From Escherichia coli (lineage in GTDB: Bacteria; Pseudomonadota; Gammaproteobacteria; Enterobacterales; Enterobacteriaceae): DNA of 64,000 bases. Numbering within the stretch: position 1 is the first letter of the stretch; every line of letters starts with the position of its first letter. The notes under the pieces were generated by a model. The model was not told where the DNA came from. It worked only from the letters and a program-made list of their open reading frames with translations, and did no database searches. Location: assembly GCF_022846255.1 (NCBI RefSeq), contig NZ_AP025682.1. One strand, written 5' to 3'. The translations under genes and the position numbers were made by a program. Positions 3,101 through 32,125 of this stretch are shown one piece after another.

Positions 3101-4025
3101 TACCTGGCAGATGCAGCGCCTGCGTGACAACCCGGAGTGTGCCGATCAGGAACATCAGGCGAAATCAAACGACGCCGATCCGGGCCTTAATGTGAAACTG
3201 TCGTTCGATATCAACGAAGATGTGGCAGCACCGTTTATTGCCACTGGCGCGCGTCCGAAAGTTGCTGTGCTGCGTGAGCAGGGCGTGAACTCCCATGTTG
3301 AAATGGCGGCAGCTTTCCACCGTGCAGGCTTCGATGCTATCGACGTGCATATGAGCGATCTGCTGGCTGGACGCACGGGCCTGGAGGGTTTCCACGCCCT
3401 GGTCGCGTGCGGTGGTTTTTCCTACGGTGATGTGCTGGGCGCTGGTGAAGGTTGGGCGAAGTCTATCCTGTTCAATGACCGTGTACGCGATGAGTTTGCA
3501 ACCTTCTTCCATCGTCCGCAAACGCTGGCGCTGGGGGTATGTAACGGTTGCCAGATGATGTCTAATCTGCGTGAACTGATCCCAGGTAGCGAGTTGTGGC
3601 CACGTTTTGTGCGTAACACCTCCGATCGCTTTGAAGCGCGTTTCAGTCTGGTAGAAGTAACCCAAAGCCCGTCGCTGCTGTTGCAGGGGATGGTGGGCTC
3701 GCAGATGCCGATTGCTGTCTCTCACGGTGAAGGGCGCGTTGAAGTGCGCGATGCGGCGCATCTGGCGGCACTGGAAAGCAAAGGGCTGGTGGCACTGCGC
3801 TATGTCGATAACTTCGGCAAAGTCACTGAAACCTACCCGGCTAACCCGAACGGTTCACCGAACGGTATTACGGCGGTCACGACTGAAAGTGGTCGAGTCA
3901 CCATTATGATGCCGCACCCGGAACGAGTTTTCCGTACTGTCAGCAACTCCTGGCATCCGGAAAACTGGGGCGAGGATGGCCCATGGATGCGCATTTTCCG
4001 CAATGCACGTAAGCAGTTGGGGTAA
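138..4025 (+). CDS. purL: phosphoribosylformylglycinamidine synthase (large single-chain FGAM synthase)
   Basis: 1295-aa ORF with N-terminal [20 protein letters not shown] and a C-terminal glutamine amidotransferase domain (GVCNGCQMM); full-length collinear match to enterobacterial PurL from memory. Confidence 0.97.
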
Positions 4026-21798: not shown

Positions 21799-22221
21799 CT
21801 AACGGCGATCGAGAGAAATCGCCCCCGGCCCGGTAATTGCCAACAGCAGGAATGCGCCAGCGATACTGACATTCTTCCAGAAATTAATCATATTTGGCCC
21901 AACCGCATCGCCGGTCATATCCCAGTAATGGTGACCAATTACCGCTGTACCCAGCGTGTAGAAAATAAACAGCACCGCCAGCGGACGGGTGAAAAAGCCA
22001 AGCACGATTAATATCGCGGCGGGCACTTCCATAACTACCGCAATAATCGCTGCCAGCATCGGCATTGGCGCGCCCAGCGAGGCCATATATTGGACCGTAC
22101 CGTCAAAGCCCATCATTTTGGGAAAACCAAAAATAATGAAAATTAAGACCACGGCGATACGGGCAATTAATAACAAAACGGGGCGTGCAGCACCAAAATC
22201 AAAATAACGTAGTGTGTTCAT
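21799..22221 (-). CDS. yphA: DoxX-family inner-membrane protein
   Basis: 140 aa from the internal ATG (MNTLRYFDF...); four hydrophobic helices. Confidence 0.8.
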
Positions 22222-22317
22222 AACCAATCCCTTTGCAAGATAATGTGATTTAAACGTAATACACACTCTGGCACCTCGCCACGCCCCAGGAGTTGAGATA
22301 TTCGCTAATTGTCCTGG

Positions 22318-23529
<1,212 letters not shown>

Positions 23530-24342
23530 TTAAAGATCCAGCCCAGCCGCTACGTGGCGAATGCCGCGAATCGCTAAACCCGCATCAGCGTTGATCATCA
23601 CACCGCTTAATGCGCGATTATTGCGCCGCGATGCCAACATCACATACGGACCCGTAAAATCCGCCGGTTGCGGGAAAAATTGCAGCGGTAATATGGCGGC
23701 AATTTTCTCCGGCGTCAGAGACTGCATTATCGAGGTTTCACTTTGCCCGAGCGCCTGTGGGCCGCGCAGGTCGCTGGCCATACCACACGGGCCGACGCCA
23801 TTCACCCGCACTTTCGGTGCCAGTTCATAAGCCAGTTGGCGAATAAGTCCGGTTGCGGCATGTTTACTGGCGGTGTACAGCGGGCCACCGCCGCCGGGAT
23901 ACCAGGCGGCATTTGACAGTGTGAAAATCATGCTGCCTTCACTGGCGATTAACGCCGGAGCGCAGGCTTTTGCGCCCAGCAGGTAACCGAGTACGTTGAC
24001 GTTAAACAGCTCGTGGAAGCCGGTTTCGAGCGTCTCTGCGGGAGTATTAACCAGTGAGGCATTGTGATCCCAGATGCCCGCATTGCCGATAAAACAATCC
24101 AGTTTGCCAGAACGAGTCAGGATCTGATCGATCGCGCGTTGATAATCGGTATAACAGGTCACGTTGCCTTCCACCGCCAGAATATGTTCACCAAATCGCT
24201 GACGCAGACTGGCGACTTTCGCCGCCGACAGTTCCAACGTGGCAACCTGCGCGCCTTCTTCGATAAATCGCTCGACCAGCGCCAGGCCTAATCCCGAACC
24301 GCCGCCGGTAATAAAGATGGACTCGTTATGCAGATCGCTCAT
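23530..24342 (-). CDS. hcaB: cis-dihydrodiol dehydrogenase (SDR family)
   Basis: 270 aa short-chain dehydrogenase ([13 protein letters not shown] catalytic motif). Confidence 0.92.
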
Positions 24343-24658
24343 GGCTGCGCCTCCGGTAAGTCGATGAAGATGTCACCACCTTCAACGTGTACTGGATAAG
24401 TGGTTAGCGGATCGGTGGCGGGCAGGCATAATGCTTTCCCCGTTTTCAGGCAAAAACTGGCGGCGTGCAGCGGGCACTCCACCGTGGCGTCATCTTCCAG
24501 ATACCCTTCTGACATCGACGCATTACCATGGCTGCAACGATCGTTAATGGCATAAAACTCGCCGCCTACGTTGAACAGGGCGATGACGGGCGAGGTATCG
24601 ATCCGGAGAGCCTCACCCTCCGGCACATCCGCAACGGGACACGCATAAATTCGATTCA

Positions 24659-24659
<1 letters not shown>
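24339..24659 (-). CDS. hcaC: Rieske-type ferredoxin of the 3-phenylpropionate dioxygenase
   Basis: 106 aa; Rieske ligands CSH...CPLH; 4-nt overlap with hcaB. Confidence 0.92.
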
Positions 24660-26571
<1,912 letters not shown>

Positions 26572-26670
26572 CTATTTTTGTGCCATAAGGATGTTGCTGG
26601 TTGGTTGCTGATATGTGAAATAGTTAATTTCTACCAGCTGAGACGTTTTTTCGATAACAAGGGGAAGGTG

Positions 26671-27561
26671 ATGGAACTACGGCATTTACGCTATTTCGTC
26701 GCAGTGGCGCAGGCACTGAACTTTACCCGTGCGGCGGAAAAACTGCATACCTCACAGCCTTCGTTAAGCAGCCAGATCCGCGATCTTGAAAACTGTGTCG
26801 GTGTTCCGTTACTGGTGAGGGATAAGCGCAAAGTCGCGTTGACGGCGGCGGGAGAATGTTTTCTCCAGGACGCGCTGGCAATCCTCGAACAAGCGGAAAA
26901 TGCCAAATTACGGGCGCGGAAAATTGTTCAGGAAGACAGACAATTAACCATTGGCTTTGTGCCATCGGCGGAAGTGAATTTACTGCCAAAAGTATTACCG
27001 ATGTTTCGTCTCAGACAGCCAGACACCTTAATTGAGCTGGTGAGTTTAATCACCACGGAACAGGAAGAAAAAATTCGCCGTGGTGAACTCGACGTCGGCT
27101 TAATGCGCCATCCCGTTTATAGCCCGGAGATTGATTATCTGGAGCTTTTTGACGAACCATTAGTGGTGGTGTTACCGGTTGATCACCCTTTAGCACATGA
27201 AAAAGAGATCACTGCCGCGCAACTGGATGGCGTGAATTTCGTCAGTACTGATCCAGCGTATTCCGGTTCGCTTGCGCCGATCGTTAAAGCGTGGTTTGCG
27301 CAAGAAAACAGCCAGCCAAATATCGTCCAGGTGGCAACGAATATTCTGGTGACCATGAATCTGGTGGGGATGGGGCTGGGCGTCACTTTGATACCCGGTT
27401 ATATGAATAATTTTAATACCGGCCAGGTGGTATTTCGACCCATTGCCGGAAATGTGCCTGCCATTGCTTTACTGATGGCGTGGAAAAAAGGGGAGATGAA
27501 GCCGGCATTACGCGATTTCATCGCCATTGTGCAGGAACGTTTGGCATGCGTAACGGCATAA
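26671..27561 (+). CDS. hcaR: LysR-type transcriptional activator of the hca operon
   Basis: 296 aa from ATG 26671 (MELRHLRYFVAVAQALNFTRAAEKLHTSQPSLSSQI = LysR HTH); divergent from hcaE. Confidence 0.92.
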   Translation: MELRHLRYFVAVAQALNFTRAAEKLHTSQPSLSSQIRDLENCVGVPLLVRDKRKVALTAAGECFLQDALAILEQAENAKLRARKIVQEDRQLTIGFVPSAEVNLLPKVLPMFRLRQPDTLIELVSLITTEQEEKIRRGELDVGLMRHPVYSPEIDYLELFDEPLVVVLPVDHPLAHEKEITAAQLDGVNFVSTDPAYSGSLAPIVKAWFAQENSQPNIVQVATNILVTMNLVGMGLGVTLIPGYMNNFNTGQVVFRPIAGNVPAIALLMAWKKGEMKPALRDFIAIVQERLACVTA

Positions 27562-27720
27562 TTACGCATTATTTTTGCAACATGCGTCGCGGCTCGCAGT
27601 TTTTTAGTGCTTGTGAACTGGCGTTACAGACATCAGGAAGCAGGCTCGAATATTCTTATTTTTCAACTTGCACCAACATTCGATTAACCCCAGACTAACG
27701 CCTCCTGACGGGAGGGACTC

Positions 27721-28860
27721 ATGGTTTTGCAATCCACGCGCTGGTTGGCGCTCGGCTATTTCACATACTTTTTTAGTTACGGCATTTTTCTACCTTTCTG
27801 GAGCGTCTGGCTTAAAGGGATTGGTTTAACGCCAGAAACCATCGGCCTGTTATTGGGGGCGGGTCTGGTTGCCCGTTTCCTCGGGAGTTTGCTCATCGCG
27901 CCCCGCGTCAGCGATCCTTCCCGCCTGATTTCCGCCTTGCGCGTGCTGGCACTGCTGACACTTCTCTTTGCTGTCGCCTTCTGGGCGGGGGCGCACGTAG
28001 CGTGGCTGATGCTGGTGATGATTGGCTTTAACCTCTTTTTCTCACCGCTGGTACCGTTGACCGATGCACTGGCGAATACGTGGCAAAAGCAGTTCCCGCT
28101 TGATTACGGCAAAGTGAGACTGTGGGGCTCGGTGGCGTTTGTCATTGGCTCGGCGCTGACGGGCAAACTGGTCAGTATGTTTGATTATCGGGTGATCCTC
28201 GCGCTGTTGACGTTGGGCGTGGCATCCATGCTGCTCGGCTTTCTCATCCGTCCGACGATTCAGCCACAAGGGGCAAGCCGCCAGCAGGAGAGCACCGGCT
28301 GGTCTGCGTGGTTGGCGTTGGTTCGCCAGAACTGGCGCTTTCTGGCCTGCGTTTGTTTATTGCAGGGGGCACATGCGGCCTATTACGGTTTTAGCGCCAT
28401 TTACTGGCAGGCAGCTGGCTACTCGGCCTCGGCGGTGGGGTATTTGTGGTCGCTGGGCGTGGTGGCGGAAGTCATTATCTTTGCGCTGAGTAATAAACTT
28501 TTCCGCCGTTGTAGTGCACGCGATATGCTGTTGATCTCGGCGATTTGCGGCGTAGTGCGCTGGGGCATTATGGGAGCAACGACGGCGTTGCCGTGGTTGA
28601 TAGTGGTGCAAATTCTGCATTGCGGTACCTTCACGGTCTGCCACCTGGCTGCCATGCGCTATATTGCTGCTCGCCAGGGTAGCGAAGTCATCCGTTTACA
28701 GGCGGTTTACTCTGCCGTCGCGATGGGCGGCAGTATCGCCATCATGACCGTTTTCGCCGGTTTCCTGTATCAATATCTCGGCCACGGCGTGTTCTGGGTG
28801 ATGGCGCTGGTGGCGCTTCCGGCAATGTTTTTGCGCCCGAAAGTTGTTACCTCATGCTGA
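27721..28860 (+). CDS. hcaT: MFS transporter (putative 3-phenylpropionate permease)
   Basis: 379 aa, 12 predicted TM helices. Confidence 0.88.
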   Translation: MVLQSTRWLALGYFTYFFSYGIFLPFWSVWLKGIGLTPETIGLLLGAGLVARFLGSLLIAPRVSDPSRLISALRVLALLTLLFAVAFWAGAHVAWLMLVMIGFNLFFSPLVPLTDALANTWQKQFPLDYGKVRLWGSVAFVIGSALTGKLVSMFDYRVILALLTLGVASMLLGFLIRPTIQPQGASRQQESTGWSAWLALVRQNWRFLACVCLLQGAHAAYYGFSAIYWQAAGYSASAVGYLWSLGVVAEVIIFALSNKLFRRCSARDMLLISAICGVVRWGIMGATTALPWLIVVQILHCGTFTVCHLAAMRYIAARQGSEVIRLQAVYSAVAMGGSIAIMTVFAGFLYQYLGHGVFWVMALVALPAMFLRPKVVTSC

Positions 28861-30132
28861 TTCGAGCATTTTGCGGATCTGCTCCTGTTGATGTGTTGTC
28901 AATGTCAGGTCCGTATAGATCAGCGGTGGTGAAAAGAGCGGTAACGGCATGGTATAAGGCGCAATAATCAGTGCCGCGCCGCGCGGAGCGCCTGTCTGCA
29001 AAAATGCCTTTACCGACATATGTTTAATGTTGAGCGGCAGTAACGTTAGTTCGCGTAGCTGCTGCTCAATCTGCGCTTCTCGCTCGCTATCATTCCCGGT
29101 CAGTAGAATAATCTGTTTCTCATGCAGGTCGTTTTCCTGCATTAGCCAGGCACCAAAAATCACCGCTACCAGACCGCTTTCCTCATCAGAAAGATGGACG
29201 CCGTATTCACTTTCAAATCCGGCCAGCGCCGCGCGGGTGGTGCGCACCAGGCGTGGATACAGGCGGGCGAACTCTTCCGGCAGGGTGTTATCAATACCGA
29301 TGGCAAACAAACTGCGATTTAACGCCTGGGCGAGGTGGGTATAAAGCTGATCGCATAACCCCTGTTCATCATAAAAACGAACATTTCCCAGCTCACGAAA
29401 GTGGTTTACCAGACGTTTGATAGACTGACGCAGTTGTCTGTCCCGCTGATGCGCATCCCGCAGTGGATCGGGAACCCGCAACATGGAAAAGAGTAGAGCC
29501 ATAAACAGTGGCTCATCAGGCGGTACAGGCTGGAGTGCCCGACGCTGCCAGTGGCGTCCAATTTCCTGCGCTACCTGAAATTCAAGGCAGGATTCTGCCC
29601 AGCGACGTTGGAGCGGATTAAACTGAGGCGTAATTCCAGCGTGATGTTGCAACAAACAATATTGCAAATACAGACACAGGAAATGAATATCGCGCGTTTC
29701 AAAGCGTTTTTGCAGCCGTCGGGAGCAGAGATTCACTAACGCTTGTAGATTGGTATCGTCGTAAAAGTTACGCGCAATTCCGCGCCGCTTCAGTTCACTC
29801 TTCAGGGCGGGGGTGAATCGGCTGGTAATAAATGACGGACACAGACGGAAACCACGTCGTAGCCAGTGAAATAAACACAAACGTTGGTTAAGCACTGTAC
29901 CTTCAACCCGGTAGCTGCCGTCATAACCAGTAGTCAGTGTGAGTTGATGATAGCGCAGGATCTCCCGTCCTGTTTCGCTGATATCAAGACTGGCAATATC
30001 ATCATCCACACCATTAAGCTCGCTGAAAGTTGCCGTGGTGGCGGTCAACCCCGGCTGAAAGAGCGTCAGCAAGATCTGGCAGCGGCGCTGGGGAGCCGAA
30101 AGGACAGATGGTGGAGCAAGCGTAGGCATCAT
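28852..30132 (-). CDS. csiE: stationary-phase-inducible protein CsiE
   Basis: 426 aa from the MMPTLAPPSVL start; 3' end overlaps the hcaT 3' end by 9 nt (convergent). Confidence 0.85.
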   Translation of the reverse strand: MMPTLAPPSVLSAPQRRCQILLTLFQPGLTATTATFSELNGVDDDIASLDISETGREILRYHQLTLTTGYDGSYRVEGTVLNQRLCLFHWLRRGFRLCPSFITSRFTPALKSELKRRGIARNFYDDTNLQALVNLCSRRLQKRFETRDIHFLCLYLQYCLLQHHAGITPQFNPLQRRWAESCLEFQVAQEIGRHWQRRALQPVPPDEPLFMALLFSMLRVPDPLRDAHQRDRQLRQSIKRLVNHFRELGNVRFYDEQGLCDQLYTHLAQALNRSLFAIGIDNTLPEEFARLYPRLVRTTRAALAGFESEYGVHLSDEESGLVAVIFGAWLMQENDLHEKQIILLTGNDSEREAQIEQQLRELTLLPLNIKHMSVKAFLQTGAPRGAALIIAPYTMPLPLFSPPLIYTDLTLTTHQQEQIRKMLESA

Positions 30133-30322
30133 CTGTAGATCTCCCATAAGCATAATTGATAAGAATAGCTAAAGTTTGCTCAGGGAAATGGCGAAGGGAA
30201 TGCTAATCATCAGAAATGTTGGCAAGCATCACAGAATTTTTCTCATTTTAAACTGTTCTGACCAGTGGATTAGCATGTCTTAAGGTGGTTTTGTGAATGA
30301 TTATCGTGCTAGTGATCATGGG

Positions 30323-31177
30323 TTAGTTCTGCGGATTCAACGCGCTAAGAATAAAATCCACCATCTGTTCGCGATAAACATCGCCGTGACGATCGGAAAA
30401 AGCATCAATGTGTTCGCCATCCGGGATTAGGATCAACCGTTTTGGTTCTTTTGCCAGGCTATACAACTTTTCACTGTGCTGCCATGGGATAACGTGATCA
30501 GCTTTACCGTGAATGAGTAAAAGCGGGATCGGGCTGACGCTGGCGATGTAATTTTCGCCGCTGTAACTCTCATCAAGTAAGTAGCCACTGCCGGGGATCA
30601 TCTGGTTGGCAATGGTCGCATAAGAGGCAAATGTGGAGTCGAGGATCACCGCACGTATGCCTTCACGATCACCCTGACCAATAACATCCAGAATATTCGC
30701 CCCGCCAATACTCTGCCCGAACAGCACCAGCCGTTGTGGGTTTACATCGCTGCGATGGCGCACCACATTGATGGCACTTTGCGTATCGTCCAGCAATCCG
30801 GCCTGGGACGGTGTGCCTTTTGATTTACCAAACCCGCGATAATCAAACATAAAAACGTTGAAATTACGCTCGGGTAACCAACTGACCAGCGGCCAGTGGG
30901 CGGACATATTTCCGGCATTGCCGTGAGCATGAATGATGGTTGCGATGGCGTTGTCAGCAGGGCCCGTCGAAGAAGGAATAAACCAGCCTTGCAGACGAGT
31001 ACCGTCCTTAGCCGTAAATTCGACGGATTCCGCCGACCAGGGGTCGGGACCGTATATTTTATCGTCAGGATAATAGAAGAAGTTGATGGCGACGCGCGGC
31101 ACTAAATAAACGCAGAAGGCAACAACAAAGAGAATAAACAGAATTTTGAGAACGCGTTTGTTCACTGGCAGCGCCAT
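30323..31177 (-). CDS. yfhR: alpha/beta-hydrolase (S9-type peptidase/esterase family) membrane-anchored protein
   Basis: 284 aa from the internal ATG (MALPVNKRVLKILFILFVVAF TM anchor); nucleophile elbow GQSIGG. Confidence 0.85.
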   Translation of the reverse strand: MALPVNKRVLKILFILFVVAFCVYLVPRVAINFFYYPDDKIYGPDPWSAESVEFTAKDGTRLQGWFIPSSTGPADNAIATIIHAHGNAGNMSAHWPLVSWLPERNFNVFMFDYRGFGKSKGTPSQAGLLDDTQSAINVVRHRSDVNPQRLVLFGQSIGGANILDVIGQGDREGIRAVILDSTFASYATIANQMIPGSGYLLDESYSGENYIASVSPIPLLLIHGKADHVIPWQHSEKLYSLAKEPKRLILIPDGEHIDAFSDRHGDVYREQMVDFILSALNPQN

Positions 31178-31321
31178 AACCTTTCCTTGCGACTTCTTTA
31201 TCATCCATTAATCGGGGAAAGATGGTGGGAGAGTGACGAAAGAAAGTAAAGCGGTGAGGAAGTATTTCGGAATAGCGCCTGAAAGGCGAGGGCGGGTGAG
31301 TGATATCACCCGCCTGAGTCA

Positions 31322-32125
31322 TTAACGCTTCAGAGCGTCGCTTAACTCGTCACGCATGTTCGCCAGCATGGCTTTAACAACGCGCGGGTTACCAGCAACG
31401 ATGTTACCGGTCAGCATATAGTTATGACCACCGGTGAAGTCGCTGACGATGCCGCCTGCTTCACGAACCAGCAGCTCGCCTGCCGCGAAATCCCACGGGC
31501 GCAGACCGATTTCAAAGAAACCGTCAACACGACCCGCAGCGACGTAAGCCAGATCCAGCGCCGCAGAACCGGTACGACGGAAGTCTGCACATTCGTTGAA
31601 CAGTTTGCCGACGATATTGATGTAGGTAGTGGCGTACTGTTTTGCTTTGAACGGGAAGCCGGTCGCCAGAATAGTACCGTCGAGATCGCGAGCGGTGCTG
31701 CCGCGCAGACGGTAGCCGTTCAGCTGTGCGCCCTGACCGCGAGTGGCGGTGAACAGTTCGTTACGCATAGGATCGTATACCACAGCAACTTCGGTGCGGC
31801 CTTTGATACGAACGGCGATAGATACCGCGAAGTGCGGCAGACGTTTGATAAAGTTGGTAGTGCCATCCAGTGGATCGATAACCCATTGAACATCCTGATC
31901 GGTACCTTCAAGTTCACCGCTTTCTTCGGTGATGATGGTGTGCTGTGGGTAAGATTTACGAATCGTGTCGATAATCACCGCTTCGGCAGCTTTATCTACG
32001 TTGGTCACGAAATCGTTACTGCCTTTCTGGCTCGCTTCTACAGCGTCCGGGGTTTCATAGTTTTTGGCAATTAAATTACCCGCCTTGCGCGCTGCGCGCA
32101 CGGCGATGTTCAGCATCGGATGCAT
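31322..32125 (-). CDS. suhB: inositol monophosphatase
   Basis: 267 aa; IMPase motifs WVIDPLDGTTNF and FEIGLRPWDFAAG. Confidence 0.95.
   Translation of the reverse strand: MHPMLNIAVRAARKAGNLIAKNYETPDAVEASQKGSNDFVTNVDKAAEAVIIDTIRKSYPQHTIITEESGELEGTDQDVQWVIDPLDGTTNFIKRLPHFAVSIAVRIKGRTEVAVVYDPMRNELFTATRGQGAQLNGYRLRGSTARDLDGTILATGFPFKAKQYATTYINIVGKLFNECADFRRTGSAALDLAYVAAGRVDGFFEIGLRPWDFAAGELLVREAGGIVSDFTGGHNYMLTGNIVAGNPRVVKAMLANMRDELSDALKR

Follow-up and report, generated by a model that had tools for sequence, protein, structure and literature searches.

The hcaT and csiE genes of Escherichia coli meet tail to tail with no intergenic DNA between them, so that each mRNA must run into the partner gene. 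The locus therefore raises the question of where and by what means the two transcripts end, and of whether the arrangement is a dedicated regulatory device or an ordinary overlap between unrelated genes. We addressed it in a 64,000-nt stretch of an E. coli chromosome (contig NZ_AP025682.1), hereinafter the window. Here hcaT (27721..28860, + strand) codes for a 379-aa MFS transporter, as given by the ORF list and the homologous RefSeq gene, and csiE (28852..30132, - strand) for a 426-aa PRD-domain protein; the csiE ORF could be extended to 30153, but RefSeq, in which csiE is 1281 nt long, places the start at 30132. Both are genuine protein-coding genes on opposite strands, since Pfam recognizes an MFS_1_like domain in residues 8-359 of the 379 of HcaT (E=5.9e-54) and a PRD domain in CsiE (E=1.4e-24), RefSeq annotates both genes, and orthologues of both are present in 35 of 36 species loci.

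Direct reading of the sequence shows that the 9 nt at 28852..28860, TCATGCTGA, are common to both gene ends. The 3' overlap that a sequence-only reading had claimed for hcaT (+) and csiE (-) is thus borne out by the sequence itself, by the ORF list and by the RefSeq annotation, which records an identical 9-nt overlap in three E. coli genomes. The shared segment consists of the two stop codons and one codon between them, and the two frames are codon-aligned in phase 123:321. The hcaT ORF closes with ACC TCA TGC TGA (T S C stop), and the csiE ORF, on the - strand, with GAA TCA GCA TGA (E S A stop); the complement of the hcaT TGA is the TCA of Ser425 in csiE, and that of the csiE TGA is the TCA of Ser378 in hcaT. 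Each stop codon lies at or beyond that of the partner (28860 versus 28852), as in other convergent overlapping CDS pairs, and the last ~13-20 residues of HcaT, including those encoded in the overlap, fall beyond the MFS_1_like domain. As the overlap contains the stop codons of both genes, an mRNA for the full protein of either gene cannot end before it, and an overlap of the two transcripts is logically required. The arrangement is all but universal in the species: a 901-nt query spanning the junction was found at 90% identity or more in 5424 of 5426 complete E. coli genomes, with one chromosomal copy in each.

The overlap is no more than is expected of its class. Lillo & Krakauer (2007; PMC2174442) put the number of convergent CDS overlaps in E. 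coli at 58; phase 123:321 accounts for 33% of convergent overlaps of at least 5 nt, and a model of stop-codon mutation, to which their origin is mainly attributed, gives a good fit to the phase frequencies. The hcaT/csiE pair resembles these short overlaps in its opposite strands, its 3' overlap of a few bases, its phase, and stops that derive from TCA/TTA/CTA complements with an origin through stop mutation, and it shows no material difference from them (PMC2174442). Its 9 nt slightly exceed the modal 4 nt, since, by codon reasoning, 6 nt is the shortest overlap open to a pair of TGA stops. The 50-kb RefSeq stretch around the locus has six convergent junctions: two are overlaps, of 4 nt in tadA/mltF and 9 nt in hcaT/csiE, and the remaining four leave 31-159 nt between the genes. 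The tadA/mltF overlap lies at 42-45 of the E. coli E2348/69 locus (L039), ~25 kb from hcaT/csiE, its equivalent in the window is probably near ~3000, and mltF-tadA also appears in the published excludon list. The hcaT/csiE overlap is itself already annotated; statistical treatments of its class date back to 2007, and a 2025 catalogue of excludons names the pair. Being present in every RefSeq annotation, of a known class and catalogued, it carries little weight as a discovery.

Our preferred reading, which we consider probable, is that this is an ordinary and ancient overlap between unrelated genes, arising neutrally from the complementarity of stop codons, and not a dedicated regulatory device. 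The overlap owes its existence to TGA being the reverse complement of TCA. A conserved Ser codon near the end of CsiE (...L-E-S) supplies the hcaT stop on the other strand, and a Ser codon in the unconserved cytoplasmic tail of HcaT likewise supplies the csiE stop.

The variation of the junction across species bears directly on this reading. A scan for CsiE with one genome per species gave 36 loci, 35 of them with a convergent hcaT orthologue and 34 with a measurable junction. Overlaps of 4-14 nt are present in 29 of the 34: 9 nt (TCAnnnTGA) in nine, from Escherichia, Citrobacter amalonaticus, C. sedlakii, Pseudenterobacter and Intestinirhabdus; 6 nt (TCATGA/TCATAG) in five, from other Citrobacter and from Salmonella arizonae and diarizonae; 4 nt (TTAG, CTAA, TTAA, CTAG) in eight; and 14 nt in seven, from Buttiauxella. 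The genes abut exactly in two further loci, so that a spacer is absent in 31 of the 34, and gaps of 38, 89 and 186 nt separate them in the remaining three. The gap sequences fold strongly (-57 kcal/mol at ~5237-5325 of L022, -18.7 kcal/mol at ~5237-5274 of L023 and -80 kcal/mol at ~4152-4337 of L031), and by eye their palindromic repeats resemble REP/ERIC elements, which suggests that they were inserted secondarily, the ancestral junction having had no spacer. Conservation of CsiE extends to the final residues (...IRKMLES), and the tail of HcaT after ...LRPKV is freely variable (...KVVTSC, ...KVAASA, ...VAAR, ...YCVNTQ); the length of the overlap tracks the type of stop codon and these variable C-terminal tails. 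By these comparisons, the absence of a spacer predates the divergence of these genera, the exact overlap having drifted with the choice of stop codon, and the variation in length at an always-tight junction looks as would be expected for drift.

Two natural variants were seen within E. coli. In strain E69 (L004 ~3625-3640), whose CsiE is 88% identical, an extra TAA triplet (GAA TAA TCA GCA TGA) creates an earlier csiE stop that abuts the hcaT stop, reducing the overlap from 9 to 0 nt and providing a naturally uncoupled form. In strain EC77 (L002 2659-3332), truncated forms of hcaE and hcaT are joined through a deletion and carry pseudogene annotations; the portion of hcaT that overlaps csiE at the 3' end survives, and csiE therefore keeps its normal stop codon.

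That the junction is overlapped or abutting across so many genera is an argument against a neutral reading, as is the elevated synteny of excludon pairs (ExcludonFinder, PMC12288877). However, a spacer-less junction is self-perpetuating, because there is little dispensable C-terminus to shorten and a rearrangement would damage one of the genes; the physical overlap alone blocks rearrangement and accounts for the synteny without regulatory selection. Hence, conserved tightness is not by itself proof of selection for coupling. The spacer-less state of csiE/hcaT across the Enterobacteriaceae, even where the hca operon is lacking, could also be taken to mean that the junction is a selected coupling device, through which the stationary-phase induction of CsiE would tune the MFS transporter "HcaT", or the reverse. 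If so, csiE and hcaT would form a functional pair and the main role of HcaT would not be the uptake of phenylpropionate, but we hold such a device to be improbable.

How the two transcripts end was approached through a search for terminators. No intrinsic or bidirectional terminator, in the form of a G+C-rich hairpin with a U-tract and an A-tract, is present at the hcaT/csiE junction. A consensus terminator scan gave no site downstream of either stop codon. Our own scan, for hairpins of -6 kcal/mol or below with four or more U among the next 8 nt, came up empty over the 650 nt after the csiE stop; past the hcaT stop it gave three candidates only, all of them feeble (-6.1 to -7.6 kcal/mol). The earlier proposition that the overlap leaves no room for a classical terminator therefore holds in its outcome, in that the scans gave no credible one on either strand, even inside the partner gene. 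It does not hold as a deduction: an overlap does not of itself entail the lack of a terminator, as terminators can sit within the partner CDS, where one is predicted for ~20% of E. coli genes in convergent overlaps (PMC2174442). Two individual candidates were rejected. The first is a weak imperfect palindrome across the junction, ATGCT-GATTCG-AGCAT (28854..28869), with 5 bp, two of them G-C, and TTTG after it on the + strand; the 31-nt segment that holds it folds at only about -5 to -6 kcal/mol and fails the scan. The second, at 28806-28823, is the sole + strand hairpin with a T-run, and as the hcaT terminator it would give a non-stop mRNA, lying 37 nt before the stop codon.

The junction likewise lacks conserved elements of other kinds. 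On the hcaT side, the segment 28861-28925 folds at -18.6 kcal/mol (RNAfold), and a stable stem-loop without a U-tract lies in the presumed hcaT 3' UTR (28872..28915, + strand), antisense to csiE codons ~406-420. Folding of the whole segment across the junction was no better than that of shuffles on either strand (z = -0.96 and -0.90). RNAalifold of the two 3' UTRs across 16 genera gave no conserved structure and essentially no covariation, with consensus energies of -3.2 kcal/mol for hcaT and -0.01 kcal/mol for csiE. Synonymous-site diversity in the last ~50 codons of the two genes falls at the 17th-96th percentile of gene windows, indicating no constraint there; such constraint is seen only at the 5' ends of both genes. 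An Rfam scan of 26000-32000 (E<=1) gave no match at the junction. Elsewhere in the scanned region, between yfhR and suhB (31262-31315, + strand), it gave a sub-threshold match to the Pseudomonas sRNA P26 (RF00630; 32.4 bits against a gathering score of 36, E=7.5e-4), which may represent the complement of the suhB terminator region.

For csiE, published 3'-end mapping, which the sequence-only reading had named as the appropriate check, places the end past the overlap, so that the transcripts do overlap. The Term-seq data of Adams et al. (2021) for MG1655 grown in LB to OD600 2.0 contain a single 3' end at the locus, 2666762 (+), with a mean of 1,664 reads, classed as "primary" for csiE and "antisense" to hcaT. 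Placed by its 61-nt upstream sequence, of which 59 of 61 positions match the - strand of the window from 28855 to 28795, this end lies at 28795, within hcaT and 57 nt beyond the csiE stop. The csiE 3' UTR accordingly spans 28795..28851 (- strand) and lies antisense to the final ~22 hcaT codons. For hcaT itself, none of the conditions in the same Term-seq study yielded a 3' end. The 57-nt csiE 3' UTR folds at -12.6 kcal/mol (RNAfold) and contains two small GC-rich hairpins (28804..28841, - strand), a candidate structure for protection against exonucleases. The final one, GCGC-CACCA-GCGC (28816 to 28804), stands 9 nt before the mapped end and has no U-tract; a steady-state end directly after a stem-loop of this kind is thus found for csiE only.

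Such an end recalls the transcripts studied by Dar & Sorek (2018; PMC6061677), which are terminated by Rho and trimmed back to a protective stem-loop. The csiE end similarly lies just past a GC stem-loop without a U-tract and has C-rich sequence further downstream, but its hairpin is small, with a 4-bp closing stem, and is not conserved outside Escherichia. A composition scan found a C-rich, G-poor stretch on each strand: 29111..29228 (+; C/G up to 2.2), which an hcaT transcript would reach 250-370 nt past its stop, and 28504..28631 (-; C/G ~2.1), at 220-350 nt past the stop for a csiE transcript. As candidate zones for the loading of Rho and for termination, these are suggestive only. They are no more than moderately unusual, which weighs against the Rho step: such windows make up 0.6% of those on the + strand and 3.1% of those on the - strand, and 10% and 32%, respectively, of random 400-nt stretches contain one. 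The data with and without bicyclomycin (Adams et al. 2021; LB, OD 0.5, at which csiE is weakly expressed) show no Rho region within MG1655 26664xx-26669xx, and the TERMITe supplementary data mention neither csiE nor hcaT. On balance, we slightly favor Rho-dependent termination inside the partner gene. Beyond the stop codon, where ribosomes have come off, the RNA is antisense and without translation, and Rho would most likely end it within a few hundred nucleotides; the csiE RNA would then be trimmed to the local GC hairpin, giving the mapped end at 28795, and the hcaT end is predicted to form by the same route. Both Rho dependence and trimming, like the weakness of any cross-regulation, are what we infer from these observations.

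A different way of setting both 3' ends would dispense with Rho. A single-molecule and SEnd-seq study proposes that, for convergent E. coli genes, head-on and trailing collisions between RNA polymerases bring about termination, with stem-loops in the nascent RNA being required, and stem-loops do lie near the junction on both strands, at 28804-28841 (-) and 28872-28915 (+). That model was built on intergenic bidirectional terminators, though, and the hairpin flanked by A- and U-tracts that characterizes them is absent here. Moreover, both genes are weakly expressed, the ~1,660 reads at the csiE end comparing with tens of thousands at neighbouring ends, and no hcaT end was detected; at such levels of expression, frequent collisions of multiple polymerases are unlikely. 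Termination driven by converging polymerases consequently seems a poor prospect at this locus.

With the csiE end at 28795, the mature csiE and hcaT mRNAs are complementary over at least 66 nt (28795-28860), and head-on encounters of polymerases or pairing of the RNAs could take place when both genes are active, with an effect that is probably small. The sequence-only reading had likewise raised transcriptional interference and antisense pairing as possibilities. The physical premise of that suggestion is documented, both by the Term-seq end of csiE within hcaT and by the ExcludonFinder listing (NAR 2025, PMC12288877), which explicitly includes csiE-hcaT among the 165 convergent excludons of MG1655 as present in at least 50% of 58 transcriptomes, the transcript overlap being backed by Term-seq. 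A meaningful regulatory effect is another matter, and the position of the dsRNA, the stability of the hcaT mRNA and the lack of conservation give no evidence of one.

In its strong form, the regulatory case is that of a functional convergent excludon, in which csiE and hcaT would be mutually exclusive through interference and cleavage of the duplex by RNase III. Polymerases and antisense RNA set off by the stationary-phase induction of csiE would enter hcaT from its 3' end, those from hcaT would likewise enter csiE, and selection for this coupling would maintain the tight junction. Apart from the place of the pair in the MG1655 "excludome", such a role would fit the 57-nt reach of the csiE mRNA into hcaT, the adjacency kept in 35 of the 36 species loci, and the lower single-cell co-expression and higher synteny reported for the class. 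However, expression alone is enough to place a pair with overlapping CDSs on such a list, and an anticorrelation specific to this pair is not reported. The catalogued excludons also have overlapping terminators, predicted by Transterm HP, in 146 of 165 cases (PMC12288877), whereas our scans gave no credible one for csiE-hcaT. On mutual exclusion and RNase III processing, the two hallmarks of the excludon concept (PMC12288877), the indirect hints for this pair are negative, and the overlap region is without conserved sequence or structure, as described above.

The validated E. coli precedent, mscL-arfA (Morra et al. 2023, PMC10070815), helps to define what a functional pair looks like. Like csiE-hcaT, mscL and arfA are convergent neighbours in the Enterobacterales with complementary 3' UTR or 3' CDS, and their CDSs overlap in some species and are separated by a short gap in others. 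In that case, by contrast, antisense regulation and RNase III cleavage have been shown experimentally, and the 3' CDS of arfA carries a known regulatory stem-loop (PMC10070815); for csiE-hcaT, no such effect or stem-loop is known, and we found no conserved structure.

In a p19-capture dataset of double-stranded RNA (dsRNA), csiE is scored as a "Full" overlap, with more than 50% of its CDS covered by dsRNA reads. The captured, RNase III-cleaved dsRNA, however, maps to U00096.2 2663459-2664122, equivalent to ~29467-30130 of the window, in the 5' half of csiE and away from the junction. Under the growth conditions used, the p19 tables contain no entry for hcaT and no cluster at the junction, although a low level of duplex may still form there. 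Convergent 3' overlaps as a whole yield ~38-fold fewer p19 reads than 5' overlaps. The same table reports antisense start sites within csiE on the + strand of the window at ~29433, ~29632 and ~30010. The first of these is preceded, at a distance of 7 nt, by an extended -10-like motif, TGaTAGACT (29418-29426), and the dsRNA cluster begins just downstream of this start. Any antisense control of csiE thus seems to come from internal promoters and not from hcaT. It might still be supposed that most of the antisense RNA over csiE, and with it the extensive dsRNA there, stems from read-through from hcaT, which has no intrinsic terminator. Yet the clusters stop at ~29467, directly downstream of the ~29433 start and its TGaTAGACT motif, and the region 28861-29466, which read-through would have to cross, has no cluster; in addition, the C-rich zone at 29111-29228 could halt hcaT transcripts earlier. 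Read-through as the principal source is, accordingly, very hard to credit.

Both genes are linked to stationary phase, hcaT having been implicated in survival in that phase, and this link speaks against a purely neutral reading. Expression of csiE depends on sigma-S and cAMP-CRP. However, hcaT mRNA is invariant across strains, temperatures and growth stages, to the extent that it was adopted as a reference gene for qPCR, and, although the design of those experiments was not aimed at the effect of csiE induction, such invariance is hard to reconcile with strong silencing of hcaT by the stationary-phase induction of csiE. Taken with the position of the dsRNA, it makes a functional excludon of csiE and hcaT unlikely.

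The neighbourhood of the pair adds a historical perspective. In the window, yphA, hcaDBCFE and hcaR (21808-27561) lie upstream of hcaT (27721-28860). A terminator-like hairpin with a T-run is seen at the hcaR stop codon (27546-27579, + strand), and it accords with the report that hcaT is served by a promoter of its own within the 160-nt gap (PMC10249474). The association of hcaT with these genes is, nevertheless, restricted. hcaR/hcaE adjoin hcaT only in some genomes of the E. coli clade (the window, L006 and, as a fragment, the EC77 locus) and are absent beside it in E. albertii, E. whittamii, E2348/69, Es_ST80 and every other genus sampled. More generally, the 5' neighbour of hcaT, compared between the window and loci L001 and L003-L039, is variable, being yphA in 8 of 38 cases. 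Judged by gene order, the csiE/hcaT pair seems to be the older, the hca operon having been inserted later between it and yphA. As hcaT is paired with csiE across genera and adjoins hca only in some E. coli, it may have been named for a late-arriving neighbour, and the pairing with csiE offers a modest lead for re-examining the role of the transporter.

The tight junction also has a practical consequence. The primer for the original Keio deletion of csiE was misplaced and also removes the 3' end of hcaT, with its last transmembrane helix, and the Keio library holds both correct and incorrect csiE mutants (PMC9431181), the site corresponding to 28852-28900 of the window. Because this primer artefact truncates hcaT, phenotypes assigned to Keio knockouts of either csiE or hcaT need to be interpreted with care.
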